Shown: in pieces, positions 12,358 through 64,000 of the stretch
Layout: every line of letters begins with the position of its first letter
Numbering within the stretch: the first letter of the stretch is position 1
Assembly (NCBI GenBank): GCA_014380625.1
Contig: JACMJL010000185.1
Coordinates: forward strand, 1,896-65,895
Reading direction: 5' to 3'
Origin: Clostridiaceae bacterium
GTDB lineage: Bacteria > Bacillota > Clostridia > Clostridiales > Clostridiaceae
Length of the DNA: 64,000 bases
The notes under the pieces: generated by a model
What the model was told of the DNA's origin: nothing
The model's input: only the letters and a program-made list of their open reading frames with translations
Database searches by the model: none
Translations under genes and position numbers: made by a program

Positions 12358-12849
12358 TTATTTAATCCTTTCTAAAATAAGAAAGTTATGTGGTATAGAG
12401 TTTTTCTCGTCTATAACACCCTCTATTTTAGAAACTTCTTTCCATTGACCCTTATCTATTTCAGGAAAATAGGTATCTCCCTGAAAGACCTTTTGTACCT
12501 TAGTTAAATATAACTTTTCACTGTAAGGCATAAGTGCTTTATAGATTTCTCCTCCGCCAATTACAAAGTATTCAATTTCTTCATTAAGAGATTGGAGTAA
12601 TTCCTCAACAGAATTAACTACCTCTACCATTTCACTTTGGGCTATAGAGGAACTATTTCTTGTTAAAACAATATGTTTCCTACCGGGAAGTATTTTAGGA
12701 AGAGACTCAAAAGTTTTTCTTCCCATAATTATGGTATGACCCATGGTGATCTCTTTAAAGTTCTTTAAATCATTAGATAATCGCCATAAAAGGTCATTAT
12801 CTTTTCCAATAACATTATTTTCAGCAACTGCTACTATAATTGAAAGCAT
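12358..12849 (-). CDS. folA: dihydrofolate reductase
   Basis: 163 aa. IGKDNDLLWRLSNDLKNFKEITMGHTIIMGRKTFES. Overlaps the thyA stop by 1 nt. Confidence 0.9.
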   Translation of the reverse strand: MLSIIVAVAENNVIGKDNDLLWRLSNDLKNFKEITMGHTIIMGRKTFESLPKILPGRKHIVLTRNSSSIAQSEMVEVVNSVEELLQSLNEEIEYFVIGGGEIYKALMPYSEKLYLTKVQKVFQGDTYFPEIDKGQWKEVSKIEGVIDEKNSIPHNFLILERIK

Positions 12850-13640
12850 TAGATAGCTACCTCCATTTGAATTTTTTCATGATATTTATAATCTATAAGC
12901 TTAATATCCTCAGGAGTAAATTCATAAAAATTATTTATCTCAGGATTTATCCAAAGTTTAGGGGCATCATAGGCATCATTAATTCTAGTTAATTGAAGCT
13001 TTAAACCCTCCACATGATTTTCATATATATGTGCATTGTTAATTACATGTGTAAAGAGCCCTGGTTTTAAACCAACTGCTTGAGCAATTAAATGAACTAG
13101 CACAGCATATTGACATGTATTAAAGGGTATTCCAAGCCCTGCATCTCCTGACCTTTGCACCAGCATACAATTAAGTCTACCATCCGTTACATCCCACATA
13201 GTTAAAAAACAGCAAGGGTGCAGCGCACCTGTATTCAAGTAAGGAATTTGCCATAGGTTAATCATCATTCGACGATCTTGAGGATTATTCTTTAAAGTAT
13301 TAATCAATTCATCGATTTGCTTAAACTTTTCAACCACAAACCCATAGGATGTTCCTATAGTCCCATCTTCCATCATCCATTCATCCCATATATGCACATT
13401 TTGTGCTTGAAGAGCTAATACATCATTACTCTGATCTTTAAAAATCCATAAAAGTTCTTTAACTGCAGTTTTAAAGGCAACAAATTTAGTTGTTATTATT
13501 GGAAACTCCTTCTGTAGATCAAACTGCATTATCTGATGGGGAAGCTTATATGTTGCCATCCCTGTTCTATTTTGATCATAATAACCTTCATTTAATATGT
13601 CATCAATTAATTTATGGTATTTGATATCCGCTACACTCAT
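12849..13640 (-). CDS. thyA: thymidylate synthase (ThyA)
   Basis: 263 aa. Catalytic-Cys region LHPCCFL and [13 protein letters not shown]. Confidence 0.9.
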
Positions 13641-18302: not shown

Positions 18303-18572
18303 GCCGTGCACCCAGCGTCGACATTAACTTATGAGCGTTACCATTATAGGTGGCTCAAGTCAGATTTTTCCACGGCACACGAAAGTTTTTGCTTACCGCT
18401 GCTTCCTTCCGGATCTGACGGAGTTCACAAATTTTCGTTGCGTGGGACCCGACTCTCAACACCACTTCTAATGGTCAGACCTCACAAGTTAAGGCCTCAA
18501 CTGGGAATTCAACCCTGCTACAGCGGATTGCAGGTTACAGGGCACCGCTATCTCCCCATCTAGCACGACAAA
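18303..18572 (-). ncRNA. ffs: signal recognition particle RNA, long (Bacillus scRNA-type, with Alu domain)
   Basis: The reverse complement reads GTCGTGCTAGATGGGGAGATAGCGGTGCCCTGTAACCTGCAATCCGCTGTAGCAGGG ... GTCAGATCCGGAAGGAAGCAGC ... GGTGCACGGC. It is colinear with B. subtilis scRNA as I recall it, including the domain IV motif. Ends are approximate (+/-5 nt). Confidence 0.85.
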
Positions 18573-18579
18573 GTTTAAC

Positions 18580-18669
18580 TGGCGGAGAAAAGGGGATTCG
18601 AACCCCTGGTAGAGTTGCCCCTACACACGCTTTCCAGGCGTGCTCCTTAAACCGCTCGGACATCTCTCC
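18580..18669 (-). tRNA. tRNA-Ser(GGA): tRNA-Ser (anticodon GGA), CCA encoded
   Basis: The reverse complement GGAGAGATGTCCGAGCGGTTTAAGGAGCACGCCTGGAAAGCGTGTGTAGGGGCAACTCTACCAGGGGTTCGAATCCCCTTTTCTCCGCCA folds as follows: 7-bp acceptor stem, anticodon stem CACGC/GCGTG with loop CTGGAAA, long variable arm, GGTTCGAATCC T-loop, discriminator G. Confidence 0.9.
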
Positions 18670-44115: not shown

Positions 44116-44360
44116 CTAAAAAAATAAGAGCCTTGGAGAAATCCAAGGCTCTTTTACTCAAATAAATTTAAATAAGAATAAAGTTCGCGTTGGATAGCTC
44201 TCCACAATAAAATTGTGACAGTCTTACATATATTTTATGCAAAACCAGTATAATAGCCTTTAAGCATATGCTATTTACTTCGGCGATAATTCCTTTCCCA
44301 TTATATCTATGTGCTTACCTCAATAATGGTACTCTTAAGTCTCGCGCCTCTACCTCTAAA
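44116..44360 (-). promoter_or_regulatory. lysine riboswitch (L-box) with terminator
   Basis: The minus strand reads GGTAGAGGCGCGAG..AGAGTA..GGGAAAGG..TCGCCGAAG..CTGG..GACTGTCA..TGGAGAGCTATCC (L-box core). This is followed by the hairpin AAGAGCCTTGGA-TTTC-TCCAAGGCTCTT and T7 (44116-44153). Confidence 0.85.
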
Positions 44361-48921: not shown

Positions 48922-49881
48922 CTACATTGGCAATTCGTTTAAAGTTTTAAATTCAAAACCTTTGCTTGTCCACTCTTTTAATAAATAATCTAAAATATTT
49001 GCATTTGTTTTAGAAACGGCATGTAACAGAAGTATTCCACCGTTATGAGTTCTTTGCATAATTAGATTTTTTGCATAATCCTCACTAGGTTGTTTAGCGG
49101 TATCCCAATCTGCATAGGCAAAACTCCAGAAAACAGACTTATAACCTAACTGTTGAGTGTAATACATTGATAATTCACTATATTTACCCATTGGTGGTCT
49201 AAAGAATTTCTTCATTTTAGTTCCAGTTAGGGTTTCAAAGGTATTTTCACAAGTAATAAGTTCTGCATTAAATTTATCTCTATCCCTAATTCCTGCCATT
49301 GAGGGATGAGTAGTTGAATGATTACAAACAAGGTGTCCTTCAGCTACCATTCTTTTAATTAAATCCTTATTATCATTAATATAAGGTGTAGTTACAAAAA
49401 AGGATGCTTGTACATTATTAGCTTTTAAGATATCCAGCATTTTTGAAGTATATCCATTTTCATAGCCTTCATCAAAGGTAAGATAGTTAATTTTTTTTGT
49501 AGTATCTCCAAGGTAATAACCACTAAACCGTTGAAGGTAATCCCCTACTTCTTTTGGCGGAGCAGGCGAAGTACCATCAGTTTTAGGGCTATAATACCAA
49601 TTTTTTTCTGAGGAACTTAAAGTTAAGGGGTCAGCCGTAGGTTTATCTGAAATCGGAGTACTAGGCTTATTAACTACAACTTCTGGAGTACTTGGTTCTG
49701 GTTTAATGTTATCTTTTGAAGGTTTCGGCGTACTTGGTTCTGGTTTTACATTATTATTTAAAGGTGCTGTAACAGTATGTGAAATAATAGGCTTTTGGAC
49801 AATAGCTTCAGGCTCGTTTCTTCCACAACCTACAAAAACTAATGAAATCAACAGAATTAAACTAATAGTATTTCTTTTCAT
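48922..49881 (-). CDS. pdaA: polysaccharide deacetylase lipoprotein (PdaA-like, delta-lactam-type)
   Basis: Lipobox FVGC. A Pro-rich linker with a duplicated KPEPSTP, then YLTFDEGYENGYT, NHSTTHP, FRPPMGKYS, LLLHAVS, colinear with B. subtilis PdaA as I recall it. Confidence 0.8.
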   Translation of the reverse strand: MKRNTISLILLISLVFVGCGRNEPEAIVQKPIISHTVTAPLNNNVKPEPSTPKPSKDNIKPEPSTPEVVVNKPSTPISDKPTADPLTLSSSEKNWYYSPKTDGTSPAPPKEVGDYLQRFSGYYLGDTTKKINYLTFDEGYENGYTSKMLDILKANNVQASFFVTTPYINDNKDLIKRMVAEGHLVCNHSTTHPSMAGIRDRDKFNAELITCENTFETLTGTKMKKFFRPPMGKYSELSMYYTQQLGYKSVFWSFAYADWDTAKQPSEDYAKNLIMQRTHNGGILLLHAVSKTNANILDYLLKEWTSKGFEFKTLNELPM

Positions 49882-50424: not shown

Positions 50425-50520
50425 ATACTTTTCTTTTGAAAAGAGCAAACTTGTTGAAAAACAAGGACGCAAAGCTACGAATCTACGGCAAAAGCTATGA
50501 TAGTCGGGTTACCAAAAGGG
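50425..50520 (+). promoter_or_regulatory. c-di-GMP-I (GEMM-I) riboswitch
   Basis: GAGCAAAC-TTGTT-GAAA-AACAAG-GACGCAAAGCTAC...CGGCAAAAGC...AGTCGGGTTACCAAAAGG. Matching features are the GCAAAC element, a GNRA-capped P1 hairpin, ACGCAAAGC and CGGGTTACC, which fit the GEMM-I core (Vc2/Cd1-type) as I recall it. Confidence 0.8.
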
Positions 50521-50577: not shown

Positions 50578-51984
50578 ATGGTTATTTTTATTAAAAAGGG
50601 TAAGTTTCTTTTATTCTTACTAGCTATTCTAGTTGTATTTTCTGGTTTTCAACTTAATAGGGTACAAGCTATTTCTCAAACTATATACACTCCTATTGAA
50701 AGTACTAAGGTACTAAATAACCCTTTAATGGGTTGGGCTCCTGATGCAAGATGGATTTTAAAGACACAAAAATATAAGTTAGTTTTTGCATCATTAACTT
50801 GGAGTGACCTTGAAGCACAAAAGGGGATATACAATTTTAGTGCAATTGAAACAAAATTCAATTTTAGTTATTGGCACCAACAGGGTGTTAAAGTCATTAT
50901 TAGAGTAGTTTTGGACAATCCTAGTAGTATAAACCATAAAGATATTCCTAATTGGCTATATAACGAAATAAATGGAGACGGTATTTGGTACAATAATAGC
51001 TACGGTCAAGGCTTCAGTCCAAATTATGAGAATGCTACACTGTTAGCTTATCATCAAAAATTAATTTCTGCACTTGGACAAAAATATAATAATTCTGGTG
51101 ATATTGCTTTTATAGAACTCGGTAGTCTTGGTCACTGGGGTGAATGGCACACAATGCAAGCTACAGGATACACCTTTATACCTTTCCCTAGCGAGGCCAC
51201 TGCTAATAAATATGTTACTCATTATATTAATAGTTTTTCCAATAAAATTAAGTTAATGAGAAGACCTTTTAATATCGCGAAAACTAATAATTTAGGCCTC
51301 TTCAATGATGTTTTTGGAGATATCGTCCAAACTGACAGATATCTTTCATGGATAAACAATGGTTACTATAATAATTATACCAAAGCACAACAGCCTGCAA
51401 TGATAGATTTTTGGAAAAAAGCTCCCTCAGGAGGAGAATTCGCAAACGGAAAAGCTGGTGTTCAATATTTCAGCGATATTAACTTTAGTAATACTCTTAC
51501 TAAAGCTAAGGAAACCCACTTATCTTGGGTTGGTCCAAATTGTCCTGCAAATCAACCACTTAACGGAACAATACAACCTAATATGGATAGTTTTTTAAAT
51601 ACAATTGGATATAAATTTGTTATTTCTCAAGTGTCATATTTGCCTACTATACAGCGTTCGAAGTCTGCTTCCCTTACAATTACTATCAACAACAAAGGAG
51701 TGGCTCCATTTTATTACAAATGGCCTGTAACTCTTTATCTAATGGATTTGAATGGAAATGTAATAAACAAGCAAACTTCAACTGAAGATATTAGAAATTG
51801 GCTTCCAGGTATAAGAACCTTTAGCTCTAATTTATATATACCTTCAAAAACTAAACTAGGCACTTATAAACTGGCAATAAGTATAAATGACCCGTCCGCC
51901 CTAAATCAATCCGTAGACTTCGCAAATGAGGGCAAAACCTCATCCGGCTACTTCTATATCGGTAATATAACTGTAGCAAATTAA
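50578..51984 (+). CDS. secreted glycoside-hydrolase-like protein (clan GH-A TIM barrel; DUF4874/DUF4832-type as I recall)
   Basis: 468 aa with a signal peptide. LTWSDLEAQKGIYNF, GSLGHWGEWH, APSGGEFA. Paralogue of 52030-54012. Confidence 0.7.
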   Translation: MVIFIKKGKFLLFLLAILVVFSGFQLNRVQAISQTIYTPIESTKVLNNPLMGWAPDARWILKTQKYKLVFASLTWSDLEAQKGIYNFSAIETKFNFSYWHQQGVKVIIRVVLDNPSSINHKDIPNWLYNEINGDGIWYNNSYGQGFSPNYENATLLAYHQKLISALGQKYNNSGDIAFIELGSLGHWGEWHTMQATGYTFIPFPSEATANKYVTHYINSFSNKIKLMRRPFNIAKTNNLGLFNDVFGDIVQTDRYLSWINNGYYNNYTKAQQPAMIDFWKKAPSGGEFANGKAGVQYFSDINFSNTLTKAKETHLSWVGPNCPANQPLNGTIQPNMDSFLNTIGYKFVISQVSYLPTIQRSKSASLTITINNKGVAPFYYKWPVTLYLMDLNGNVINKQTSTEDIRNWLPGIRTFSSNLYIPSKTKLGTYKLAISINDPSALNQSVDFANEGKTSSGYFYIGNITVAN

Positions 51985-51987
51985 AAA

Positions 51988-52029
51988 TAGAGACTATATC
52001 AAAATTTAATCATTTTGATATAGTCTCTA
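51988..52029. terminator. bidirectional terminator between the two convergent hydrolase-like genes
   Basis: 18-bp perfect stem TAGAGACTATATCAAAAT/ATTTTGATATAGTCTCTA flanked by A5 and TTATTTT. Confidence 0.85.
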
Positions 52030-54012
52030 TTATTTTACAATTGAGAAATCGTCAATCACTGAACTATACTGGGAGTTTTCCTCTTTAAACTTTACTCTTA
52101 GGCCAATTTGAGAAACACTATTTTCATCTTTACACTTTATATTAAATATATCCTCTTCCTTATTGTTTTCCGTAAGATTAAATATTCTTATCTTATCTTT
52201 ATTCTTTTTAATCATAATATTAGCAGGAAGTTTGATAATACTACTTTCTTTATCACAACTTATTTTTAAAGCATTATTATCAACATAGTTTATATTAATA
52301 ATCTGTTGAATATTTCCATCAGTGTTGTTCTCAATACTATAATTCTTAATATTTGAATTAGGATTTTTTAAACCAAGTTTTATTTCATAACCATCTGAGT
52401 TTAAGAGGTTTCTATAAATAAAACATTGATTTTCAGAACTTTGTTCTTTATTTTTAGGAATCGAATTTATTGTCAGCTTTTCACCGAAATAATCAATATA
52501 ATTGTAATAATTATTATTTTTTAAATCATTACAATTATAGGGATATTGCATAATCACTTCCGTTTCACCAACACTGCAAGTTTTACTTTCTTCACTTCCT
52601 GTATTAGCAAATTCAATTTCAGGTTTCTTTGTTTCAGGATTTAGAAGGTAAACATTCATATTATATATTCCTGCTGATAAACTTTTGTTTAAAGGAATAT
52701 CAAAATCAATATCAGCACTTCCAGGAAGCAGTTTCTTGATATTATAATCAAACTTGAATGTATCCATAATACTTTTATTTATATAATTAATTGATAAATA
52801 TAATGGCCATTCAAAATAGAAGGGTGCTACACCTGAATTTCTAAGGCTTATTTTACCTTTTAATTTATCACCAGGATAATTTTTGTCAAGGTATTGGGAC
52901 TTTGTAACAGTATACCTATATCCCATAAGATTCAAAAGTTTACTAAGATTTCTCTGTTTATCATCCTCAAGCTTAACGTATCCAGGATTGCTCGGTCCTA
53001 ACCAACTTGTATGACTATTCTTAACCATATTAATTGTGCTTTCTATAGATCTATCCTCAAGATATTCATCACCGGGATAGTTGGCAAATTCACCTCCAGA
53101 TGGAGCTTCCGTCCAAAAATCTTTCATACTCGGATTTTGTTGTTCAATGTTTGGGTCCTCATAACCGTTATTTACCCAGTTAAGAAAATAATCATTAGTT
53201 TGAAAATCATCTCCAAAGGAATCATTAAAAAGTCCCATTTTATTATCCTTCGCTATCTGAAAGGGCCTTCTCATAAGTAAAATCTTATTTTTAAAGTAGT
53301 CAAGATATGGTTCTACATACAGATCAGTAATATTTGTCTTTGGAAAGTTGTTATTTCCCCCTAATAAAGAATTGTGCCATTCACCCCACTGACCTATACT
53401 CCCAATCTCTACAAAGGCAATTTCCCCATCCTTATCATACCTTTCTGATAATGCCTTTATTAAATCTAAATGATACTTGATCAAAAGTTTATTATTATAG
53501 TCTGGAGAAAAACCCTTCTGTCCATCTTTGTCATACCAGCTACCCTTACCTTGGATTTCATTATAAACCCATTCTGGGATATCCATATGCTTTACATCTG
53601 AAGGGTAATCGAGATACAACCTGATTACAAACTTGATTCCTTTTTCTTTCCAATGATCATAGCGTATTTTTGTCTCAAAGGCTTGAAAATCAATCCTACC
53701 CTTTTGGGGCTCCATCTCTCTCCAAGAAACCCCCGCATAAACCATAGAAAATGGTTGAGGTATATTTTCAGATGTGCTATCCATAACAAGTCCAATATAT
53801 GGATTTGTTATAACCCTGTCGCTTTCTTGGAAAACATTCACCTTATCTTCCTGTTTTACACGGTTTACTCTATCTTCTTTACTTGATTTAAAGCTAAAAA
53901 ACCCACATCGTAAAATCAATATTACAAGTAGACAAAGAACTACAATTATATTTATTAAAATAAATGATTTCATCTTTCTCTCATCCATGGCGTCATTCCG
54001 CATAATCCCCAT
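52030..54012 (-). CDS. membrane-anchored glycoside-hydrolase-like protein (paralogue of 50578-51984) with ~190-aa N/K-rich C-terminal extension
   Basis: 660 aa. TM anchor FILINIIVVLCLLVILIL, VSWREMEPQKGRIDF, GSIGQWGEWH, APSGGEFA. The start is uncertain (ATGs at 54012, 54003, 53988 and 53973). Overlaps the DUF4956 gene. Confidence 0.7.
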   Translation of the reverse strand: MGIMRNDAMDERKMKSFILINIIVVLCLLVILILRCGFFSFKSSKEDRVNRVKQEDKVNVFQESDRVITNPYIGLVMDSTSENIPQPFSMVYAGVSWREMEPQKGRIDFQAFETKIRYDHWKEKGIKFVIRLYLDYPSDVKHMDIPEWVYNEIQGKGSWYDKDGQKGFSPDYNNKLLIKYHLDLIKALSERYDKDGEIAFVEIGSIGQWGEWHNSLLGGNNNFPKTNITDLYVEPYLDYFKNKILLMRRPFQIAKDNKMGLFNDSFGDDFQTNDYFLNWVNNGYEDPNIEQQNPSMKDFWTEAPSGGEFANYPGDEYLEDRSIESTINMVKNSHTSWLGPSNPGYVKLEDDKQRNLSKLLNLMGYRYTVTKSQYLDKNYPGDKLKGKISLRNSGVAPFYFEWPLYLSINYINKSIMDTFKFDYNIKKLLPGSADIDFDIPLNKSLSAGIYNMNVYLLNPETKKPEIEFANTGSEESKTCSVGETEVIMQYPYNCNDLKNNNYYNYIDYFGEKLTINSIPKNKEQSSENQCFIYRNLLNSDGYEIKLGLKNPNSNIKNYSIENNTDGNIQQIININYVDNNALKISCDKESSIIKLPANIMIKKNKDKIRIFNLTENNKEEDIFNIKCKDENSVSQIGLRVKFKEENSQYSSVIDDFSIVK

Positions 54013-54673
54013 TATAACTTATAAGTGATGCATCCATAACTCCAGGAATTTGAGATATTTCATTTACGAAGCTGGAATTATTACTTTTAACTTTAACCTC
54101 AACAGAAAGTTCAGTAATTCCTTTTGCCACTGTCTTTCCCTTTGTTACATACTTCATTCCTTCAAGAATTATTTTAACATTATCCTTTGCTTCCTCTTCA
54201 AAATGAATAATTAACATATAAGTTCTACTTTTAATCTTATAATTTGTCATTATTAAAATAATCAAACCTACAAAAAGAGACCCGAAAATAGAAACTGAAT
54301 AAACCTTAGCTCCAGACGCTATTCCCACAGTTATTGCCCAAAACATAAACATAATATCCATTGGATCCTTCAGAGCCGTTCTAAATCTTACAATACTAAG
54401 AGCTCCTACCATACCTAAAGACAGGGCCACATTTGAGCTTATTGTTAAAACTATAAGAGATGTCAGCATACACATCATCAATAGGGAAACATTATAAGCG
54501 TAGCTATATACAACCCCTTTAAAGGTATACTTATATATGAAAAATATAAACAACCCTGCTATTAAGGTAAACACTAAACAGATCATTACTTCAGATGTTG
54601 GTATTTTTTGGAACGTATCTAAATTTGAAAAACCCTTTTTTAAAATATCTTGAAAATTCAAACTCTTATCCAT
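53993..54673 (-). CDS. DUF4956-family membrane protein
   Basis: 226 aa with about 4 TM segments. The signature ALSIVRFRTALKDPMDIMFMFWAITVGIASG is what I associate with DUF4956. The C-terminal ~80 aa form a soluble domain. Confidence 0.7.
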   Translation of the reverse strand: MDKSLNFQDILKKGFSNLDTFQKIPTSEVMICLVFTLIAGLFIFFIYKYTFKGVVYSYAYNVSLLMMCMLTSLIVLTISSNVALSLGMVGALSIVRFRTALKDPMDIMFMFWAITVGIASGAKVYSVSIFGSLFVGLIILIMTNYKIKSRTYMLIIHFEEEAKDNVKIILEGMKYVTKGKTVAKGITELSVEVKVKSNNSSFVNEISQIPGVMDASLISYNGDYAE

Positions 54674-54687
54674 TTTATTTCCTCCAT

Positions 54688-55389
54688 TTATATATTATTC
54701 TTTTGTACTCTGCAAAAAACATATTTAGAAATTGCACTCATATCCTTTGCATCCATGCTAATCATTTTTTTTACTATGTCAGGAAGGAACTCATTAAATT
54801 TAACCTCCATTATCATCATTGGCATGGGAAATATGATCTTTGTAGCTATATTAGGATTAAATATATCATTACTTGAAAATGCGACTCTTACATTCTTATC
54901 AAAAGTAATTCTTACATCACTAATATTCCCCACATAGGCCTCCCTATCATAATCAACGATGACCTTAGGTATTAACAATTTATTTTTCATTGTCATAAAC
55001 AAGTCCTTTTTTAATAAGCTATCTGCTGCGTCAAGAAAGGTAAACTTTCCTTGAAGGATGTTCTCGTACTCTTCTCTTGAAATATTAACAGCCTCTTTAT
55101 TTACATACTGACCTACCTTGCTTTTCCGTTCCAATTTTATAGACTTATCGCTCATATTGTATATTCTTATACGATATTTATTTCTTAAATTTACTCCAAA
55201 GTTCTTTTCAAATAAGGCTGAATCATAAATATCATCAAAATAGAGACTCCTAATAAAGTATTCCCCTTGTTCATTAGCATTGGAATCAAGTTTTAATACA
55301 TGCTTTATTCTATTCCGAACGGCTATATAGTCATTATAATTAATATAATATTTTAGCTCATGTCTAAATTTCCTTGCTGTGTGTCCCAT
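54688..55389 (-). CDS. VTC-domain (polyphosphate polymerase-like, CYTH/triphosphate-tunnel) protein
   Basis: 233 aa. RHELKYYI.., FIRSLYFDD, RNKYRIRIY, MEVKF strand pattern typical of bacterial VTC-domain proteins. Confidence 0.7.
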   Translation of the reverse strand: MGHTARKFRHELKYYINYNDYIAVRNRIKHVLKLDSNANEQGEYFIRSLYFDDIYDSALFEKNFGVNLRNKYRIRIYNMSDKSIKLERKSKVGQYVNKEAVNISREEYENILQGKFTFLDAADSLLKKDLFMTMKNKLLIPKVIVDYDREAYVGNISDVRITFDKNVRVAFSSNDIFNPNIATKIIFPMPMMIMEVKFNEFLPDIVKKMISMDAKDMSAISKYVFCRVQKNNI

Positions 55390-55407
55390 CCCATACCTAC
55401 TCTCATA

Positions 55408-57117
55408 TTAATTTATGATAAGTTCTTTTTCTCCATAATAACTTTTTCCGCTAACAATGTGGTAAAGATCAAAGGCAATCTGATGCTTGTTCTTAGAATT
55501 GTAAATATCAACCTTCCAGTAATACTTTCCTTTAGCTAAGTTTTCTACGGTTATAGTCATATCTTTAAGTGAATCCTTATTAAATACAACATTTTTAAAA
55601 TCTGGGTCTGTGCTCAAACTAAAATTATAAAATAAATCATTACCTTTTAAGTCATATGATTCTTCCCATTTAAAAACAGTTTTATTTCCTTGTACTTCAG
55701 GAATGCCTAAAAATATGGGCATAGGTGTATCTATATTCTCATAGAATCTTTTTTTATTTGTTTCAATTACAGAAGGTAATCTCTTAATTTCTTTTTCATA
55801 ATTTTCTAGGGTAGAAGGTATAAAGTTAAGATCGGGCAAGGTCTTAATAATAGAACTTGTTTGACTATAGTATTTTGAAACCAAACTCTTAACTTTTTCC
55901 TCTGACATATACTTTGAGACTTCCTCCAATTCCTGTGTTAAATCCTTAAGGTTATTAGAGTCTGAAATAAACCTTTTATGAAGTTTAACCCCCCAGTAAT
56001 TTGATAGGGGCTGAGTTTGCCAAGGAGCATATAGCTCTTGCTCGTGAGGTTGTGATTCATAGCCAAATGCACCATCATAATCCCAGGGTATAAAGTACCA
56101 TCTTTCTGCAGTAATAGGACTAAATAGCAAGAAATTTTGTGAATTTGTATCCCAATTTCCAGTAAGGATATTTACTGCAAGCCAGGTCAAATAATTTTCT
56201 CGATCAAAGTGTTTTTTGATTACATCATTAATATTCAAACTATAATTATTTACATCATCAAGCATACCTATTAACAATGAATGGTCCTCAATACCTCTGA
56301 TTTTTAGTACCTTTTCAAACTCTATTTTGTTATAGCTTGGATCATCTACATTTTTAATCCTTTCATCATCTCTGTTAAATTCAAAAAACTCTGCTTTATA
56401 TAAATATCCTTGCTGAGCAAGTCCGTGATTTTTTATATAGGTCTCATTTGGTTGTTCTACCTGAGTAAATAGACCATAATCTATAAATTGTTTACTTGAT
56501 CCTGATAAGTCTTTAATATACAGATGAAAAAACTGAGTTCTTAAGCTAAACATGTTTGGAATAGTTTTAAAAAGATCAAAAGCTAACTTATTTCTAATCC
56601 TAGACATATCATAAGGAGATTTACTTAAATTAATAATCTTCTGTCCTTTCCACTTTCCACTCTTTTCGTCTAATGTGACTTTAAAGGATTTCTGAGAAGC
56701 TGAGCTAGATGAGTGACCTTTAGGTTCCAAAACTGCATTTGCTTCAGAACCAGAAATAGATATCGGTAGATTTCCAATATCTACCTGTATATCTAATTTA
56801 GGTTTTTCATTAACTTTATCTTTATCATTTTCACTTAAAAAATATTTGAATTTATAATTATATAAATCCCCCAAGGTTTCTTTATTGTCTTGTAGAACTG
56901 TAATGTACATATTCTTCACAGTATCATCGTCATCAGCATAAATTAATTTATTGTCCTCAACCTTAAAACTATCCGTAACACTTTCTTTATTACTATCTGT
57001 TTTCTCTTTAGTGTCAAGAAGCGGATTGTTACTAACTAAAATACTTATAGCGGTCGAGCCTACTAGAACTCCAGCAATTATAAATATTAATACTTTGTTA
57101 TTTAAATACTTTTTCAA
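55408..57117 (-). CDS. CotH-family kinase-like protein, membrane-anchored/extracytoplasmic
   Basis: 569 aa. TTG start directly after the pelG TGA, with an AAGGAAGGAAA RBS. N-terminal anchor VLIFIIAGVLVGSTAISILV. CotH motifs YLTWLAVNILTGNWDT and YFIPWDYDGAFG. C-terminal Ig/Fn3-like module. Confidence 0.8.
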   Translation of the reverse strand: MKKYLNNKVLIFIIAGVLVGSTAISILVSNNPLLDTKEKTDSNKESVTDSFKVEDNKLIYADDDDTVKNMYITVLQDNKETLGDLYNYKFKYFLSENDKDKVNEKPKLDIQVDIGNLPISISGSEANAVLEPKGHSSSSASQKSFKVTLDEKSGKWKGQKIINLSKSPYDMSRIRNKLAFDLFKTIPNMFSLRTQFFHLYIKDLSGSSKQFIDYGLFTQVEQPNETYIKNHGLAQQGYLYKAEFFEFNRDDERIKNVDDPSYNKIEFEKVLKIRGIEDHSLLIGMLDDVNNYSLNINDVIKKHFDRENYLTWLAVNILTGNWDTNSQNFLLFSPITAERWYFIPWDYDGAFGYESQPHEQELYAPWQTQPLSNYWGVKLHKRFISDSNNLKDLTQELEEVSKYMSEEKVKSLVSKYYSQTSSIIKTLPDLNFIPSTLENYEKEIKRLPSVIETNKKRFYENIDTPMPIFLGIPEVQGNKTVFKWEESYDLKGNDLFYNFSLSTDPDFKNVVFNKDSLKDMTITVENLAKGKYYWKVDIYNSKNKHQIAFDLYHIVSGKSYYGEKELIIN

Positions 57118-58575
57118 TCAGATTTTCCTTCCTTTCAGCAGCATATATTTGTATAACTTCCCGAATCTTCCTTCTTTGTTTTTAATAAATATTGGTTGTG
57201 AAGCAAAGGTGTAATAGTCAATTTCTTCTAGAAAATAACTAAGCTTAAAGTAAGCAAAAACCATAGATATAATAGCTGCAGCAAAAAATCCATATCCATA
57301 AAAACTTTCACCTAAAAATAAACTGATTAATGTAAAAATAAGATTTAAACTAAAAAAAGTAATAGCTATATGCATTGCATTTTTTTTATTATCAAAATAA
57401 AGTAAAATTATTAAGAGAAAATACATAATAATATAACAAAGGCTACCTAATATAAGTATGGAAAAAATATCTGTAGATAGTTGGGATAATCCTACCATCG
57501 GTAACAGCTTTCTTCCAAATGCTATAAAGGTGAAAGAAATAAACAATTGAACTTCAATTAAATATCTTAATTCAATCAATAAAGTTGTAATCATCTCTGA
57601 ACGGGCAATTTCAATATCTTTAACACTACCATTGCTTTGTGTCAAACTGTAATACTCCTTATATCTAGGATAAAAGGAAGTCTCAACCTTCACTACAAAT
57701 ATTACAGTTATTGGTATTATGGATAAAAAAGCATAAAACAAAGCAACATCATAGAAGGGTGCAATTCTAAAAGTATCTTTTATAACCATCCCTTTGTCAC
57801 TGAACCAAAACACAAAGTTATGCACATACATACCCAAATAATAAAGAACACCTGTTACCAAAAGTTCTGGATGTTCATCTATGCTGGTTATTATTTCAAA
57901 GCAATCAGTAACACTAAATCTTGTTCCTCCATAGACCTTATATATCTTTATTGCAAAAAGTATCGCCATAACTAAAAAGCCTATAACAAGGGAGAGTAAT
58001 GCTGAAAAGAAATTATCTATATGAATCCAATATACTAATCCCAAAAATACTGAAAACATAACAGCTATTCCAATAAAGAAACTTATAAATATTGATAGAT
58101 AATCTTTAATTGTGGTAATATAAATGGATTCAATCCATATTATTGAAATTTCTCCAAGAAGAATAATTGAATATATCTTTACAAAGTCGTTTATTCCTGA
58201 TGTTAAGTAAAAGATATTTGCAAGCACAAAATCAATTATAAGAACTATAACAGTGACCCCAAAGAAAGAAGGGAAAATTTTACCCAAAGTCTTTCTATAA
58301 ATACAATCAGAGATATATCTTGCAGCCAATAATACAAACCCTCCAGTTATGATTAAAGAAAAAGCAAAACAATATATCATAATGGATATGAAATACTGAA
58401 TATTTATAAAAGATTCTCCCATGTTTTTTAATAATACCTGCATTCCAATAATTAAAATTATACATAATAAAGTAGGACCTGAAGTTACAACAGATGAAAC
58501 AAAATATGCTTTAAAATTATAAAATAAACCCCGTTCTTTAAAAAGACCTCTCAATTCAAACCCAATACCTGCCAT
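57118..58575 (-). CDS. pelG: Pel exopolysaccharide export/polymerisation membrane protein PelG
   Basis: 485 aa with about 12 TM segments and the characteristic N-terminus MAGIGFELRGLFKE. Confidence 0.8.
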   Translation of the reverse strand: MAGIGFELRGLFKERGLFYNFKAYFVSSVVTSGPTLLCIILIIGMQVLLKNMGESFINIQYFISIMIYCFAFSLIITGGFVLLAARYISDCIYRKTLGKIFPSFFGVTVIVLIIDFVLANIFYLTSGINDFVKIYSIILLGEISIIWIESIYITTIKDYLSIFISFFIGIAVMFSVFLGLVYWIHIDNFFSALLSLVIGFLVMAILFAIKIYKVYGGTRFSVTDCFEIITSIDEHPELLVTGVLYYLGMYVHNFVFWFSDKGMVIKDTFRIAPFYDVALFYAFLSIIPITVIFVVKVETSFYPRYKEYYSLTQSNGSVKDIEIARSEMITTLLIELRYLIEVQLFISFTFIAFGRKLLPMVGLSQLSTDIFSILILGSLCYIIMYFLLIILLYFDNKKNAMHIAITFFSLNLIFTLISLFLGESFYGYGFFAAAIISMVFAYFKLSYFLEEIDYYTFASQPIFIKNKEGRFGKLYKYMLLKGRKI

Positions 58576-59990
58576 TAACCTTCACCCACCACTTCATCAT
58601 AGATTTTCCTATAGCTATTTATAAAGTTATCGATTGTATATAATTTTGATACTCTATTATAGGCACTTTTGCCCATGTCTTCTCTTAATTTTTTATCTTG
58701 GCTGAGCCGAATTATAGCTGCACCAAATGCCTCATAGTCCATTACAGGTACAACAATTCCTGCATCACCGAAATCATCATCTGCTCCATACATCAGTTCT
58801 CTGCAACTACCTACATCAGTTAAAATATGAGGTTTTTTTGTGGCCATGCCCTCCAATACTGCCAAAGGTTGTCCTTCGCTAATACTACCTAGAACTAAAA
58901 CATCCATTTTACCTATATAGTCTCTCACATTTACTTGGCCAGTAAATATTACATTTTTAAGGCCTAAGGATTTAGTAAAAGACTTGCATTCTTCTGTATA
59001 AATTAAGTCTTCATCCACAGGTCCCATAATAAACAACTGTATGTTTTTTATTTTTTCAGAAGCAATTTCAAAGCCTTGAATTATTGTCTTAATATCCTTT
59101 ATAGGTACTACCCTTAAAATTGCACCAATATTAATGATGTTCTCATCTTCCTTAATCACATTAATATCAATATAATCCCTACAATTAATACCATTGGGTA
59201 CTACTGAGATTTTATCTTCTGCACACCCTATCTCTATTTGAACCTTCTTATTACGATCAAATAGTGTAATAACTGAATCTGAAAAGGAATAAGCACACCT
59301 GGATAAATTGTAAAAGTATTTTATCCAGATATCTTTAAAGTGCCCTTTAACCCAATCAGCTTTAATTAACTCTTCTTCCCTCTCTCTGGTATAAATTCCA
59401 TGTTCAGTGAGTACTAATGGTGCACCATATTTATATTTTCCAAAGGCCGCCATTACCCCTGCATATCCCGTAGATACACTATGATATAGATCAGCTTTTG
59501 GTATGCCCTTTTTTATCACCTCAAATAATGCTAAAACCATAGATCTTATGGTCCAAAAAAAATCATTAAAAACTACATAGGGAAAATATTCTTCACATAC
59601 TTCACGTATTATATCAAAAAAATCTTTACTCATTAATAATTCAGAAACAGTAGTATCTCTGTTCTCATCAATAAACCTAAATAAATCCTGCCAGTCAAAA
59701 TATTCTCCTGTTATCAATCCTTTAATTGCGGCTTTTTCAGAAGGTTTTAAGGTATACCTCTTTCTAGGCTCTCCAGTTTCATTAAGGTAGGAATCCAGAA
59801 AAACTTCTTGAATATCTATAATATTATCAGGAAACTTGTATTTAAACTTCCCTTTTGATTCCTCATGTGCGCCTATAGAGTATATAATAAACTCATGTTC
59901 AGGCATTAATCTTATGAGTGTCTGTATCCAGCTTGATACTCCTCCGGTTATATATGGATAGCTGCCTTCTGCTACAATACATATCTTCAT
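58575..59990 (-). CDS. pelF: GT4 glycosyltransferase PelF
   Basis: 471 aa. MKICIVAEGSYPYITGGVSSW (DUF3492-type N-terminus) and a GT4 C-terminus (..SISEGQPLAVLEGMA). Confidence 0.85.
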   Translation of the reverse strand: MKICIVAEGSYPYITGGVSSWIQTLIRLMPEHEFIIYSIGAHEESKGKFKYKFPDNIIDIQEVFLDSYLNETGEPRKRYTLKPSEKAAIKGLITGEYFDWQDLFRFIDENRDTTVSELLMSKDFFDIIREVCEEYFPYVVFNDFFWTIRSMVLALFEVIKKGIPKADLYHSVSTGYAGVMAAFGKYKYGAPLVLTEHGIYTREREEELIKADWVKGHFKDIWIKYFYNLSRCAYSFSDSVITLFDRNKKVQIEIGCAEDKISVVPNGINCRDYIDINVIKEDENIINIGAILRVVPIKDIKTIIQGFEIASEKIKNIQLFIMGPVDEDLIYTEECKSFTKSLGLKNVIFTGQVNVRDYIGKMDVLVLGSISEGQPLAVLEGMATKKPHILTDVGSCRELMYGADDDFGDAGIVVPVMDYEAFGAAIIRLSQDKKLREDMGKSAYNRVSKLYTIDNFINSYRKIYDEVVGEG

Positions 59991-61816
59991 TTCGCACCTT
60001 CCGTTTCTATATTAAATTCAGAATCAATGGCCTTAATTAAATACGCATTATCATCGATTTTTGTAAAAGAACAACCCGTACATTTACTAATTTTTTTGTC
60101 AGTCCTTAAAATAAAATACATTTGATCTCTAAAGTTTTTAGAATATCCTTTAATGTTTTTCTCACTATATTTAAATTCAGTTTCAGTATCTAGATATCTA
60201 CTTAACTCAACTCCGCCCTTTGAAATAGTCATACTTCTTAGCCAATTAAAGTTATTGTGTATATCTTTCATCATTCCATTATAGTCCCTATACATATCTT
60301 CCCAACTGATTCCCAAACTCCTACTTGAATCTAATATATCATCCGGATGGAGGAAATGTGAAAAGGTTCCATATGCTGTTATTCCATTATATATTGACCA
60401 TTTTTTTTCTGAAGTGTACTTATATCCAGAAGATATACGAGGTAACTGTAAAAACCCATCATCACTTTTTTCAAATTCTTGTACATATTCATCTCCACTT
60501 AAGCCTCCCTGAAAGACAGAGGAAATTATCTTTAAGTCCGGCATAGAATTATGAAGTGCTTCTATACCTTCATCACTGATAACATTGGAGGGAGGTACAT
60601 AACTTGTTATATTATAATTAGGAAAAACAGTATGAAAATAATTGTTTACTTCTTTTAAAGACGCCTCCATATTATTAATATTAGGCCAGCTATTATATCC
60701 TAAGTCCACTTTCATAAATCCTTTGAAAACGAGAGATTGATGATTATAACCGTGTATCCCTATTTCCCCACCACTTTTAATTATTTCGTGACCAACTCTC
60801 AATAGCGTATTCCTGGTTTCTTGATCTCTTACTATATCAAAATTTGGAGAAACCCTGTTGTTATAAACTTCAATATAGAAGGTTGAATATTTTGTATCAT
60901 ACTGTTTTGAGCTTTTAAGCATGTCCGGCCACCATATATCAGAAAAAAAACTAGATGCATCCTTGCCATAATCCTTAAAAATACGCTCATTATAACCTAT
61001 TGGAATAGGTGCAGGAAAGTCATCAATAAAACTTAGTTTCATATTCATTACAGGGTAGATAAATCCAGTTTCAATCTGACCTAAAATACCAGCAAAAAGT
61101 CCTCTATTCTCCTTTTCCACAAAAAATTGCCCGTTGGAAAATATAACCTTACCTGTCCCAATTTTCTTTTCCCAAATGAGGGGTCTATTGTCACTTGAAA
61201 CACTGTATACCTTACAATCATTATCAAGCTGTACAGCTATAGAGGATATTACTGCAGTACTATCTTCTGCACCTTTCCCTTTTAAAAGGACATTAGTCAA
61301 CATTTTCATACCCTTAACTTCATCAATGGTGCCTCTTTCATAAATTCCAAGCTTTCTATATATACTAGAGAAGTTACCGCTTTGTATTGGCCTTTCTGCG
61401 ATAATTACACTACCACCCTTCTCTACATATTTAAAAAGATTATCAAAGTAATCAAAATTCTCAAAATTCTCAAAATCAAGTATTACGCAACTATAACCTT
61501 CAAAAGTAGCACTAGTATCTTTAACATCTTCATAGGTTACGTGCTTTTTCATTCCAGAAAATAGCTTTTCTAAATTTTCCTTAATCTTGATACTGGCTTC
61601 TTCTGAAGAATTAAAAACAAAAAGATACTTTTCATTTCCTTCATTTTTGATTGTATCAAATAGTTTTGAAGTTTTAACTGGAACATTTACATAATCTTTA
61701 TAAACATCCTTATTACCTACATTATTTAGAACAAAATTAGCTCTGATTACGAATAATAATGCAGATAATAATACTAATAAAACAATAAAACCACTGAAAA
61801 ATCTCTTATTAAGCAT
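59987..61816 (-). CDS. DUF2194-domain protein (PelA deacetylase-type component of Gram-positive pel loci)
   Basis: About 609 aa with a signal anchor. The ATG at 61816 shares one base with the pelE TAA (TAATG), after a GAGGGGGA RBS. Its position between pelE and pelF matches the Gram-positive pel order. Confidence 0.7.
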   Translation of the reverse strand: MLNKRFFSGFIVLLVLLSALLFVIRANFVLNNVGNKDVYKDYVNVPVKTSKLFDTIKNEGNEKYLFVFNSSEEASIKIKENLEKLFSGMKKHVTYEDVKDTSATFEGYSCVILDFENFENFDYFDNLFKYVEKGGSVIIAERPIQSGNFSSIYRKLGIYERGTIDEVKGMKMLTNVLLKGKGAEDSTAVISSIAVQLDNDCKVYSVSSDNRPLIWEKKIGTGKVIFSNGQFFVEKENRGLFAGILGQIETGFIYPVMNMKLSFIDDFPAPIPIGYNERIFKDYGKDASSFFSDIWWPDMLKSSKQYDTKYSTFYIEVYNNRVSPNFDIVRDQETRNTLLRVGHEIIKSGGEIGIHGYNHQSLVFKGFMKVDLGYNSWPNINNMEASLKEVNNYFHTVFPNYNITSYVPPSNVISDEGIEALHNSMPDLKIISSVFQGGLSGDEYVQEFEKSDDGFLQLPRISSGYKYTSEKKWSIYNGITAYGTFSHFLHPDDILDSSRSLGISWEDMYRDYNGMMKDIHNNFNWLRSMTISKGGVELSRYLDTETEFKYSEKNIKGYSKNFRDQMYFILRTDKKISKCTGCSFTKIDDNAYLIKAIDSEFNIETEGAK

Positions 61817-62706
61817 TATTCTTCCCCCTCTAACCAAAACCTAAGTATTTTTATTCCGTTACTACTAAGCTTAACCTGAGAACTTCTAAGTTTTAACATA
61901 ATTCTATTAAACTGATTAACATTTTTATTTATATACCCTATTTGAAGCAACAATAGATATGGAGTTTCACTGTTTATAAATATCTCCATATAATTTTCAC
62001 AATATGAAATCGCCTCATTAAACTTTCTTAGTGTAATATCACATTTTATAATCTCTTCAAAATAAAATTCGTTAGTCTTGTCCATACTTAGGATTCTAAT
62101 TAAAATCTCTCTATATTTATACTGATTCTTTATATAGGCTTTTTTATCTAAAAGGCCACTTTCATTATACTTTTTTAATATTCCTACATAAGTTGTGAGA
62201 ACTTCCATATTAGAGTCATCCTGTTGATATTTCACCTCAAACTCTTGGAGTGCCATTGTAAGCTTTCTTTTTACTTCTGTAACTGCCGTGGCTGCATAAT
62301 GAGAGGTTTCTGTATCCTTATCTTTAAGTGCCTTTTTTAAGAAACCCAAATATTGATATGAATCGCCTTTTATAGCATTAATTATTAGTCTTCTCTTAAC
62401 ACTTTCATCATTTAATACAAGGGCTTCTTCAATAGGAATAATATCCATCGCATTTTTCAGGTCTCCACTTCTACGAATCAAACTTTCTTGTTTAAAATCA
62501 TTGTCAAACCAAAGTTTAAAATGCTTATTATCAAATTCTACTATATACTTTTCACATACTACCATTACAATATAAAAAATCACTCCACAAAAGGGGAGGA
62601 AAATCATTATTAAAAAGCCAATGATTGCATCTTTCTTTCGAACTTTTTTTTCATATAAATATATTACTATGCTTATAATGAAATTCACCAAATAAAACTT
62701 ATACAT
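61816..62706 (-). CDS. pelE: PelE-like protein (2 TM + TPR-like helical domain)
   Basis: 296 aa with two N-terminal TM helices, then a helical-repeat region. 8-nt overlap with the pelD-like gene. The assignment rests mainly on position and architecture. Confidence 0.6.
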   Translation of the reverse strand: MYKFYLVNFIISIVIYLYEKKVRKKDAIIGFLIMIFLPFCGVIFYIVMVVCEKYIVEFDNKHFKLWFDNDFKQESLIRRSGDLKNAMDIIPIEEALVLNDESVKRRLIINAIKGDSYQYLGFLKKALKDKDTETSHYAATAVTEVKRKLTMALQEFEVKYQQDDSNMEVLTTYVGILKKYNESGLLDKKAYIKNQYKYREILIRILSMDKTNEFYFEEIIKCDITLRKFNEAISYCENYMEIFINSETPYLLLLQIGYINKNVNQFNRIMLKLRSSQVKLSSNGIKILRFWLEGEE

Positions 62707-63958
62707 ATAAAACTTCCTCTATTATCTGACTGAATTCCACGCCTTGATCTTTCAATCTATTTGATACTATTAAAGCATCTGAATTTGATGCATTTGATAA
62801 AATCAAATAAATATTATCATCAGTCCATATACCTGCAAAATCAGCTTCTCTAATACATCTCATTACTACTTCCGATAATGATTTATAATCTCTATTTGAA
62901 TTTTCTATTTTAAGCATAGCGAATTCGGATTTACTTTCCTTCATAGACTTTGTTTTTATGCTAAGGATATTTTCAAAAAACTCCTTCTTTAAAAATATAG
63001 TATCCTGCACATATCTTTCATCATTTATTGCACTCTCATATAAATAAGCGTTTAATACAGCTGTGTTTATAAGTCTAGAAACAACAACAAACAGGTTTTG
63101 AAAATATAAAGTAAGTCTATCAAACTCAACACCATGTAACATAATTAGCGCAATTGTTTTCTTGTTGGTATCAACTATTGGTGCTATCAGCATAGGTAAT
63201 TCTGGATTTAATTTTTTATTTATAAAAATATTACCTTGAAGAAGCTGTTCTTTTGCTTCCATAAAGTAATCAAGCTCAATAGTTTTTTTAGCAATTAGGC
63301 TTTCTTTATTGGATTTTACTATTAACCTCAAAAACTTAGCACTTTTGTCAATAGAATAAATTGATATTTCATCTGTGTTTAAAATTCTTTCTAGTACATC
63401 AATTGCCCCTTTGTATATAAATTGTGGCTCTAAGCTATCAAGTTCTTTAATTATTCCGTAAATCTTTCCAAAACTGTCCTCTGAATTTACAACTTGGTTC
63501 TCTAATAAGGATTTTGAGATATAGGTCTCATTATATACTTCCTGTAAAAAATTATATTTTTCTTCTATTGCTGAAATAAAAACCTTATTAGAATCTCCTT
63601 GCCTTGAATATTTATCTATCATATAGCCAACGATTAATCCTACAAGTAAATAGATACTAATTTTAAGTACAAAGCTTGTATCTAACATCATTGAAAATGA
63701 ATCCATACCCGTTGAAAAACTTTCATAGGTAAAAAGACAAACGGAAAGTATTACCGCTATAATAGATTGATTAGTTCCATAAACTAATCCCATAATTACA
63801 ATATATACAAGCTTTAAATCAACTGTATTTAATGAAAAATCCATTTTAAAAAGTTTAGTTAAAGAAAATATCACTAAAAATAATATTACATTTTCAATGT
63901 ACGGAAGAACCTTCTTAAGATGCTTCCAATCCTTTTTACTATCTTTCTTTTTAATCAT
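62699..63958 (-). CDS. pelD: PelD-like c-di-GMP receptor (4 TM + GAF + degenerate GGDEF)
   Basis: At least 419 aa. N-terminal TM bundle and a GAF-like middle. The C-terminus carries RxxD (READ, residues 370-373), followed 5 residues later by TDDNI where GG[DE]EF would be. The reading frame stays open from 63959 to the window end, so the 5' end is unresolved. Confidence 0.7.
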   Translation of the reverse strand: MIKKKDSKKDWKHLKKVLPYIENVILFLVIFSLTKLFKMDFSLNTVDLKLVYIVIMGLVYGTNQSIIAVILSVCLFTYESFSTGMDSFSMMLDTSFVLKISIYLLVGLIVGYMIDKYSRQGDSNKVFISAIEEKYNFLQEVYNETYISKSLLENQVVNSEDSFGKIYGIIKELDSLEPQFIYKGAIDVLERILNTDEISIYSIDKSAKFLRLIVKSNKESLIAKKTIELDYFMEAKEQLLQGNIFINKKLNPELPMLIAPIVDTNKKTIALIMLHGVEFDRLTLYFQNLFVVVSRLINTAVLNAYLYESAINDERYVQDTIFLKKEFFENILSIKTKSMKESKSEFAMLKIENSNRDYKSLSEVVMRCIREADFAGIWTDDNIYLILSNASNSDALIVSNRLKDQGVEFSQIIEEVLYV

Positions 63959-64000
63959 GATTTCCTGATTCTCATAGTTATCTTTATACCACTTAAAGGT

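Follow-up and report, generated by a model that had tools for sequence, protein, structure and literature searches.

An extended form of the Gram-positive operon for the exopolysaccharide Pel has already been described. Whitfield et al. 2020 (PMC7112168, S4 Fig) named a 'second accessory gene group', comprising genes for CotH, a polyphosphate polymerase, DUF4956 and DUF4832, which in species of streptococci and clostridia is contiguous with the core genes pelDEA(DA)FG and whose occurrence correlates with an N-terminal epimerase domain on PelD. Here we analyse a 64,000-nucleotide window (the whole stretch of DNA under study, from contig JACMJL010000185.1 of a Clostridiaceae bacterium) in which nine genes occupy positions 52030-63958. 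We consider it highly probable that this region is a clostridial copy of the known extended operon, a judgement that takes in a reading, set out below, of its CotH, VTC and DUF4956 genes (the triad) as a module.

A nine-gene operon has also been dissected genetically in Streptococcus intermedius, where every gene was deleted (mBio 2025, PMC12345266). Its five core genes are required for Pel and its four extra genes are dispensable. Without the CotH gene Pel falls, without the DUF4956 gene it rises, and each of these two mutants aggregates less in artificial sputum; the VTC deletion has no clear phenotype and the mutant still aggregates. Pel from this species is mostly acetylated N-acetylgalactosamine (GalNAc) (PMC12345266). 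The triad deletion that a preliminary description of the window had proposed was thus already published, in 2025, for a relative.

The S. intermedius operon, pelDEA(DA)FG followed by SIR_1594-SIR_1591, contains the same nine genes in the same order as the window. The two loci share a CotH of 569 amino acids, a VTC protein, an MgtC-like membrane protein with an ACT domain, and an anchored hydrolase combining a TIM barrel with DUF4832. In contrast to the streptococcal operon, the clostridial locus has a PelD in which a degenerate GGDEF domain and its RxxD site seem, by eye, to be retained and whose SDR (short-chain dehydrogenase/reductase) domain has an intact cofactor motif and catalytic triad; the operon hydrolase carries a C-terminus longer by ~180 residues, a second, riboswitch-controlled hydrolase paralogue adjoins the operon, and the host belongs to a clostridial lineage that uses cyclic di-GMP (c-di-GMP). 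Clostridium botulinum has the same nine genes, nearly equal in size and in the same order. The accessory group of Whitfield et al. likewise matches the window in its four genes, their contiguity and the PelD epimerase domain. The claim that the triad belongs to no described pel system was therefore wrong, since PMC7112168 names this very group in clostridia and streptococci. B. cereus ATCC 10987 is a more distant comparison: the five core functions of its pelDEA(DA)FG operon and their order are those of the window, but its PelD has no SDR domain, the triad is absent, and the accessories are a divergent GH114/PelA-type hydrolase and galE.

The arrangement is also common among relatives. We scanned metagenomes for PelG and inspected the 80 best of at least 566 matches, a sample biased towards relatives of the window proteins. 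CotH, VTC and DUF4956 directly follow pelG in 50 of the 55 loci with enough downstream sequence. The triad lies upstream of pelD in one additional metagenomic locus; at locus L118, the triad and a GH114-like gene both stand upstream of pelD. A DUF4832 gene follows DUF4956 in 8 of the 30 loci with room for it, and elsewhere is upstream and divergent, or absent. As an architecture, then, the locus is not novel: it has been in print since 2020 and was taken apart genetically in 2025, and it is what the closest PelG relatives usually have.

The operon and its core genes

In the order of transcription, the operon and its terminator comprise the following features.

62699-64000, minus strand: SDR-PelD fusion, 3' 434 codons; runs off the window, full protein 728 amino acids
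61816-62706, minus strand: PelE-like membrane protein, 296 amino acids, assigned by position, size and topology
59987-61816, minus strand: PelA_DA (DUF2194), polysaccharide deacetylase-like (Pfam DUF2194, E 2.8e-147, full length)
58575-59990, minus strand: PelF, GT4 glycosyltransferase (NCBIfam PelF equivalog, E 1.2e-113, 381 bits against a cutoff of 100)
57118-58575, minus strand: PelG, inner-membrane export component (Pfam PelG, E 3e-129, full length)
55408-57117, minus strand: CotH-family kinase, 569 amino acids, membrane-anchored or secreted (Pfam CotH, E 9e-60)
54688-55389, minus strand: VTC-domain triphosphate-tunnel enzyme, 233 amino acids, putative polyphosphate polymerase (Pfam VTC, E 1.9e-36)
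53993-54673, minus strand: DUF4956 membrane protein, 226 amino acids, MgtC-like, with a C-terminal ACT-like domain (Pfam DUF4956, E 2.5e-11)
52030-53988, minus strand: DUF4874/DUF4832 glycoside-hydrolase-like protein, membrane-anchored, 652-660 amino acids (Pfam DUF4832, E 1.1e-22; DUF4874, E 8e-6)
51986-52031: terminator, a perfect 20-bp hairpin common to the operon and a convergent gene

The nine open reading frames (ORFs) are tightly packed on the minus strand, and re-deriving their coordinates with all eight junctions bore out their initial placement across 52030-63958. The SDR-PelD and pelE frames overlap by 8 nucleotides (62699-62706), pelE meets pelA_DA in a TAATG at 61816, pelA_DA meets pelF in an ATGA (59987-59990), and pelF overlaps pelG by 1 nucleotide at 58575. 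The longest pelA_DA frame extends to a TTG at 61837, and an independent gene call on an identical contig begins at the ATG at 61816. Next, the TGA of pelG abuts the TTG of cotH (57118/57117), with AGGAAGG 9 nucleotides upstream of the TTG, and gaps of 18 nucleotides (cotH/VTC) and 14 nucleotides (VTC/DUF4956) follow, each containing a Shine-Dalgarno-like motif. These seven junctions stand as first reported. The eighth, a 20-nucleotide overlap between the DUF4956 and hydrolase genes (53993-54012), depends on choosing the long start; on the identical contig, the last gene is called from ATG 53988, 4 nucleotides past the DUF4956 stop.

With junctions of at most 18 nucleotides that carry ribosome-binding motifs, no excess of internal sites and a single terminal hairpin, the nine genes look like one transcription unit that begins beyond the window and ends at 51986-52031. 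A consensus scan of the operon region for internal promoters and terminators found no excess of either over shuffled sequence, with 5 terminator-like matches against 4.5 expected and 72 promoter-like matches against 75.2; the original report of no internal terminator agrees with this. The hairpin overlaps the TAA of the last operon gene and starts 2 nucleotides after the stop of the plus-strand gene. It had rightly been singled out as the sole convincing terminator, but it spans a 20-bp stem at 51986-52031 rather than an 18-bp stem at 51988-52029. We give little credence to a division into several transcription units by an internal promoter lying before cotH or before the hydrolase gene. This AT-rich DNA is rich in promoter-like hexamers, for example at 57106-57077 and 53973-53945, just inside the 5' ends of cotH and the hydrolase gene, and genomes differ in where the hydrolase gene stands: some have it downstream, some have it upstream and divergent, and some lack it. 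However, promoter-like sites are not enriched over shuffled sequence, and the region has neither an internal terminator nor an intergenic gap above 18 nucleotides. Our search for the operon's 5' end met only one recorded contig with an identical PelG, and this is 11 kb long and stops inside pelD; looking up the 728-residue PelD in the contig index returned no record, and the 504 nucleotides upstream of C. botulinum pelD gave no Rfam match.

Gene 1 extends past the window edge. Its frame stays open to base 64000 with no start at 63958, and the part inside the window is 100% identical to the C-terminal 434 residues of P0001, a 728-residue protein from a Clostridiaceae metagenome-assembled genome whose residues 3-233 match Pfam Epimerase (E 8e-60). 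The SDR/epimerase domain, encoded by ~294 N-terminal codons, therefore falls beyond the window and the gene starts ~880 nucleotides outside it; because of this, the 419-residue first ORF reported to begin at 63958 is a window-edge artefact. The SDR part matches the UDP-glucose 4-epimerase 4ZRM at E 3e-70 and keeps GxxGxxG, the Ser and YxxxK. The transmembrane part of PelD gives only a weak, sub-threshold Pfam match to DUF4118, and by eye its C-terminal end shows READ-FAGIW-TDDNI, which we interpret as an RxxD I-site ahead of a degenerate GGDEF motif. Full-length homologues of gene 1 fill the pelD position in every locus surveyed. By domain content, gene 1 is a long SDR-PelD fusion and not a B. 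cereus-type PelD. Whitfield et al. 2020 (PMC7112168) found the SDR residues of clostridial PelDs altered and the domains probably inactive, whereas this PelD keeps those residues. Its SDR domain, seemingly catalytically intact, probably supplies UDP-GalNAc, and its retained RxxD site probably binds c-di-GMP.

Profile searches, suggested when the locus was first described, matched seven of the nine genes, leaving PelD with its weak DUF4118 hit and PelE with none. That description had equated the first five genes with the pelD-pelE-pelA(DA)-pelF-pelG set of B. cereus; profiles support this for PelA_DA, PelF and PelG, while the PelD is of another type and PelE has no profile. PelA_DA has additional weak matches to DUF2334 and Polysacc_deac_1, and PelF combines an N-terminal DUF3492 domain (Pfam, E 3e-82) with Glycos_transf_1. 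PelE, which matches no Pfam or NCBIfam profile at any threshold, has two N-terminal hydrophobic segments and then ~230 residues without a profile match; a homologue occupies the same position in all surveyed pel loci (phmmer E 1e-20 to 1e-62). As in the characterised Pel systems to which these proteins are homologous, PelF would polymerise UDP-GalNAc at the membrane together with PelD, PelE and PelG, and PelA_DA would partly deacetylate the polymer outside the cell; the polymer predicted for such a locus is alpha-1,4-linked GalNAc/GalN.

CotH, VTC and DUF4956 inside and outside pel loci

The window CotH aligns with B. cereus CotH (5JD9) at E 6e-13, and its D323 and D346 fall at the positions of D228 and D251 in B. 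subtilis CotH, the catalytic aspartates whose mutation inactivates that enzyme. It begins with a hydrophobic anchor and has a ~110-residue extra region C-terminal to the CotH domain; its 569-residue S. intermedius counterpart reportedly has an Fn3 domain at this position (PMC12345266). An N-terminal hydrophobic segment is also present in nearly all complete CotH partners in the VTC-anchored loci described below. Given this segment, the kinase domain should lie outside the cell, and the conserved residues predict that it is catalytically competent. The Bacillus spore-coat kinase (5JD9) belongs to the same Pfam family and has both catalytic aspartates in common with the window CotH, but the latter adds the N-terminal anchor or signal sequence and the C-terminal region. 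Because it is encoded in an exopolysaccharide operon, we expect its substrate and compartment to be unlike those of spore-coat CotH.

The VTC protein has no membrane segment and no SPX domain. Its AlphaFold2 model (predicted local distance difference test score, pLDDT, 87.8) is closest in Foldseek to yeast Vtc4 (3G3R/3G3Q; E ~1e-12, template-modelling (TM) score 0.72), ahead of other tunnel enzymes, and 14 basic residues are invariant among 18 homologues. By its modelled fold, VTC is polymerase-like, with a closed basic beta-barrel tunnel nearest that of Vtc4. The link to Vtc4 comes only from fold comparison; a VTC profile run against PDB sequences gave no match even at E 10. The yeast VTC complex (3G3Q, 7YTJ, 8I6V) thus provides the best structural match (TM ~0.72) and shares the conserved basic tunnel and a membrane partner. 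Unlike it, the bacterial protein has neither an SPX domain nor a fused transmembrane domain, its partner DUF4956 is unrelated to the Vtc1-type channel, and its polymerase and translocation activities are predictions.

By profile, the DUF4956 protein resembles MgtC weakly: NCBIfam MgtC/SapB matches at E 0.0016, far below cutoff, and Pfam MgtC at E 2.8. Its AlphaFold2 model (pLDDT 75.5) contains five helices and an ACT-like beta-alpha-beta-beta-alpha-beta domain, for which Foldseek ranks the MgtC C-terminal domain 2LQJ first (E 2e-3, TM 0.63 on the target). We also looked for likeness to the yeast VTC membrane subunits, and Foldseek returned only ACT-like and MgtC C-terminal domains. Residues 85-106 form a motif, SLGMVGALSIVRFRTAxKDPxD, in which 19 of 22 positions are invariant among 24 homologues of ~50-70% identity and which places two Arg and one Lys in or beside the membrane. 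The family is uniform at ~225 residues, with 6862 representatives at 50% identity; the longer ones among the top 150 are extensions or chimeras, such as one with a citrate-synthase fragment. Searching for fusions from the other side, we found no VTC-DUF4956 protein among the 120 best VTC homologues, of which the longer ones bear an unannotated N-terminal extension.

PelG and CotH are joined in one continuous frame in eight genomes (L014 6847-9984, L043 6700-9978, L020, L025, L036, L049, L054 and L055), of which six belong to named Paenibacillus isolates, and in three metagenome contigs (L089, L090 and L102). In the L014 fusion, Pfam PelG covers residues 11-463 and CotH residues 609-907, with a hydrophobic segment between the two domains. 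PelG and CotH are unfused but in the same frame in eight more loci, including this window (57115-57120); a single stop separates them in six, the window among these, and a few more codons do so in two. Fusion and shared frame alike put CotH where Pel leaves the cell. We also considered programmed read-through at the pelG TGA and rejected it: the stops at in-frame junctions vary (TAA, TAG and TGA), which lends no support to a conserved read-through signal.

We surveyed the triad independently of pel genes in a VTC-anchored genome scan (L002-L081) that was limited to a single genome per species and gave at least 592 matches; we took the 80 best, again biased to relatives of the window proteins, and inspected up to 10 kb on each side. 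DUF4956 adjoins VTC in 78 of the 80 loci at a median gap of ~21 nucleotides, the other two being at contig ends, and CotH adjoins in 68. The loci divide into 25 that are pel-linked, 43 in which CotH is adjacent with no pel core, and 12 without detectable CotH. Two of the 43 adjoin a PelF-like glycosyltransferase in a rearranged Pel-like context. The non-pel CotHs match Pfam CotH at E 1e-40 to 1e-67, are often ~1000 residues long and often bear LTD, CHB_HEX_C, Fn3_assoc or LysM domains. The 43 pel-free loci uphold the earlier statement that the three families co-occur elsewhere and contradict the remark in PMC12345266 that the CotH-VTC-DUF4956 arrangement is absent outside pel loci. A cluster of VTC, a 226-residue membrane protein and CotH has in fact been reported in Clostridium perfringens NELoc-2 (PMC2879425); the same three families lie side by side there as in the window, but pel genes are missing, and a resolvase gene is flanked by duplicated VTC and membrane-protein genes. 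From this gene-order evidence, the triad is a portable module with VTC and DUF4956 as its fixed core, and not a Pel invention. The free-standing triad, the PelG-CotH fusion and the riboswitch-driven hydrolase paralogue are not found in the two Pel papers.

Several of these loci have features of their own. At L011 (8322-19002), CotH-VTC-DUF4956 come first, followed by an SDR epimerase, a 586-residue PelF-like glycosyltransferase (DUF3492 plus GT1) and three ORFs without a Pfam match; at L030 the triad is directly followed by a PelF-like gene. Two tandem CotH genes occur in several pel loci (L004, L013, L018, L034, L038 and L066). In L013, L034 and L066 the first catalytic Asp is gone from the second copy (NFS, NYK and NVE versus NxD), as it is from the lone CotH of L010 (NYR), and the copies without this residue may be pseudokinases. 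The idea that non-pel CotHs lack an active site, raised by a strict motif regular expression, was discarded when alignment showed both aspartates kept; by alignment, the catalytic site is degenerate only in some second tandem CotH paralogues.

A possible role for the triad at the Pel exit

We tentatively infer that the triad, a portable envelope module, acts in this operon as an outward-facing phosphorylation module at the Pel exit. VTC, as a Vtc4-like tunnel enzyme, would make polyphosphate on the cytoplasmic face while docked to its invariable partner DUF4956. CotH, outward-facing and tethered next to PelG, would phosphorylate nascent Pel or a Pel-associated surface component, with a phosphoryl supply that would depend on VTC and DUF4956. 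The outcome would be to tune Pel retention and cell aggregation while being dispensable for Pel synthesis. The S. intermedius deletions are in keeping with this outcome, since Pel is made without the extra genes and loss of CotH or DUF4956 alters Pel level and aggregation (PMC12345266). In a more specific version, which we regard as unlikely, polyphosphate from VTC and its partner would be handed across the membrane and used by CotH where ATP is scarce, and Pel would be phosphorylated or polyphosphate-decorated. If true, this would mean a chemically modified Pel that has not previously been looked for.

Several points weigh against this proposal and the operon reading around it. Polyphosphate production, its export and its use as a phosphoryl donor are each tentative steps. 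The CotH enzymes characterised so far use ATP to phosphorylate Ser residues of proteins, and they work inside the mother cell. DUF4956 looks like the regulator MgtC but unlike the channel that spans the membrane in the yeast VTC complex, and no VTC-DUF4956 fusion appears in the top 150 of the 6862 DUF4956 representatives. Deleting CotH and deleting DUF4956 move Pel level in opposite directions, and the VTC mutant is silent, which together make a poor fit to a simple linear pathway. On the side of the operon, PelE is assigned from its context, the 5' end falls outside the window, and the single unit is predicted from sequence.

A regulatory or homeostatic role is the alternative that fares best, although we find it doubtful. 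Here the MgtC-like DUF4956 would act on phosphate or ATP balance, VTC would turn ATP into polyphosphate, and together with CotH they would set Pel output; CotH would phosphorylate extracellular proteins of the Pel machinery, for example PelA_DA or the hydrolase. The architecture and best fold match of DUF4956 speak for such a role, as do the known substrates of CotH, which are proteins, and the rise in Pel on DUF4956 deletion and its fall on CotH deletion in S. intermedius (PMC12345266). However, the similarity to MgtC is weak in profile searches (Pfam E 2.8, NCBIfam E 0.0016), about 40 of the 80 triad loci have no pel genes, so the target is not generally Pel-specific, and the PelG-CotH fusions put the kinase at the polymer exit.

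Improbable, in our estimate, is that exported polyphosphate serves as a matrix polyanion that cross-links a cationic, partly deacetylated Pel, with CotH as an auxiliary. Extracellular DNA cross-links Pel in Pseudomonas. VTC resembles the polymerase of the sole machine known to link the making of polyphosphate with its passage across a membrane, the operon deacetylase would render Pel cationic, and the invariant membrane motif of DUF4956 is rich in Arg and Lys. Yet Foldseek finds no channel-like match for DUF4956, this account leaves the near-obligatory CotH partner unexplained, and in S. intermedius Pel is mostly acetylated GalNAc and the VTC mutant still aggregates (PMC12345266). Least probable is an independent passenger, serving surface phosphorylation or host interaction and co-transcribed as part of a surface or biofilm programme: the triad is free-standing in many genomes, occurs without pel genes in C. 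perfringens NELoc-2 (PMC2879425) and is not needed to make Pel in S. intermedius (PMC12345266), but it sits directly 3' of pelG in 50 of 55 related loci from many lineages, PelG-CotH fusions recur, and its deletion changes Pel level and aggregation in S. intermedius (PMC12345266).

Hydrolases and a c-di-GMP riboswitch

The last operon gene encodes an N-terminal hydrophobic helix, a TIM barrel in the DUF4874 region, a DUF4832 beta-domain and a ~180-residue extra C-terminal region. Homologues at the same operon position match it at phmmer E 1e-88 to 1e-105, and up to 1e-197. Purified SIR_1591, its counterpart in S. intermedius, has hydrolase activity and dissolves aggregates of Pel (PMC12345266), and by analogy the membrane-anchored DUF4832 enzyme of the window would cut Pel. 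A relative of this gene faces the operon, preceded by a riboswitch.

50578-51984, plus strand: second DUF4832/DUF4874 paralogue, 468 amino acids, convergent with the operon (Pfam DUF4832, E 1.5e-24)
50434-50516, plus strand: c-di-GMP-I riboswitch aptamer (Rfam RF01051, 80.7 bits against a gathering score of 35, E 2.7e-14, full length)

The two hydrolase paralogues are 38% identical over 449 residues (E 7e-115), and the riboswitch ends 62 nucleotides upstream of the second gene. In the predicted leader fold, the ribosome-binding site GGGGGA pairs with UCUCUC, and in a predicted alternative the same U-rich segment pairs with the 3' strand of the aptamer closing helix. Sequestration of the ribosome-binding site together with this alternative pairing suggests a translational OFF switch, by which the second hydrolase would be made when c-di-GMP is low. 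Neither Pel paper (PMC7112168, PMC12345266) mentions riboswitches.

Other loci contain c-di-GMP riboswitches as well. In three Bacillaceae pel-triad loci (L007 11453-12406, L008 11450-12400 and L012 11640-12588), a c-di-GMP-I riboswitch precedes a convergent gene for a secreted GH114-like hydrolase at the same relative position as in the window. Beside the pel-triad operon of L013, one precedes a histidine-kinase-like gene (12592-13529), and at L017 (5759-10958) a PAS-GGDEF-HD-GYP gene is followed by a c-di-GMP-II riboswitch and then a glycogen-phosphorylase-like gene. Just past the riboswitch-hydrolase gene of the window, on the minus strand at 48922-49881, lies a Polysacc_deac_1 deacetylase gene (E 1e-31), which may encode a further Pel-modifying enzyme; a similar deacetylase follows DUF4956 in L013 (11604-12521, Oscillospiraceae). 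Ordinary features elsewhere in the window include, all on the minus strand, a lysine riboswitch (44187-44360), and a large bacterial signal recognition particle RNA (18304-18568) and a tRNA (18583-18669).

With a riboswitch in control of one hydrolase paralogue, c-di-GMP may act as a simple switch between making the matrix and cutting it. Triad genes occur commonly in Firmicutes of gut and soil, among them C. botulinum and the streptococci of mouth and gut. Our comparative results narrow the question of what they do to a portable module with a VTC-DUF4956 core and an outward kinase that is sometimes welded to the Pel exporter, and they point to polymer phosphorylation and extracellular polyphosphate as concrete questions.

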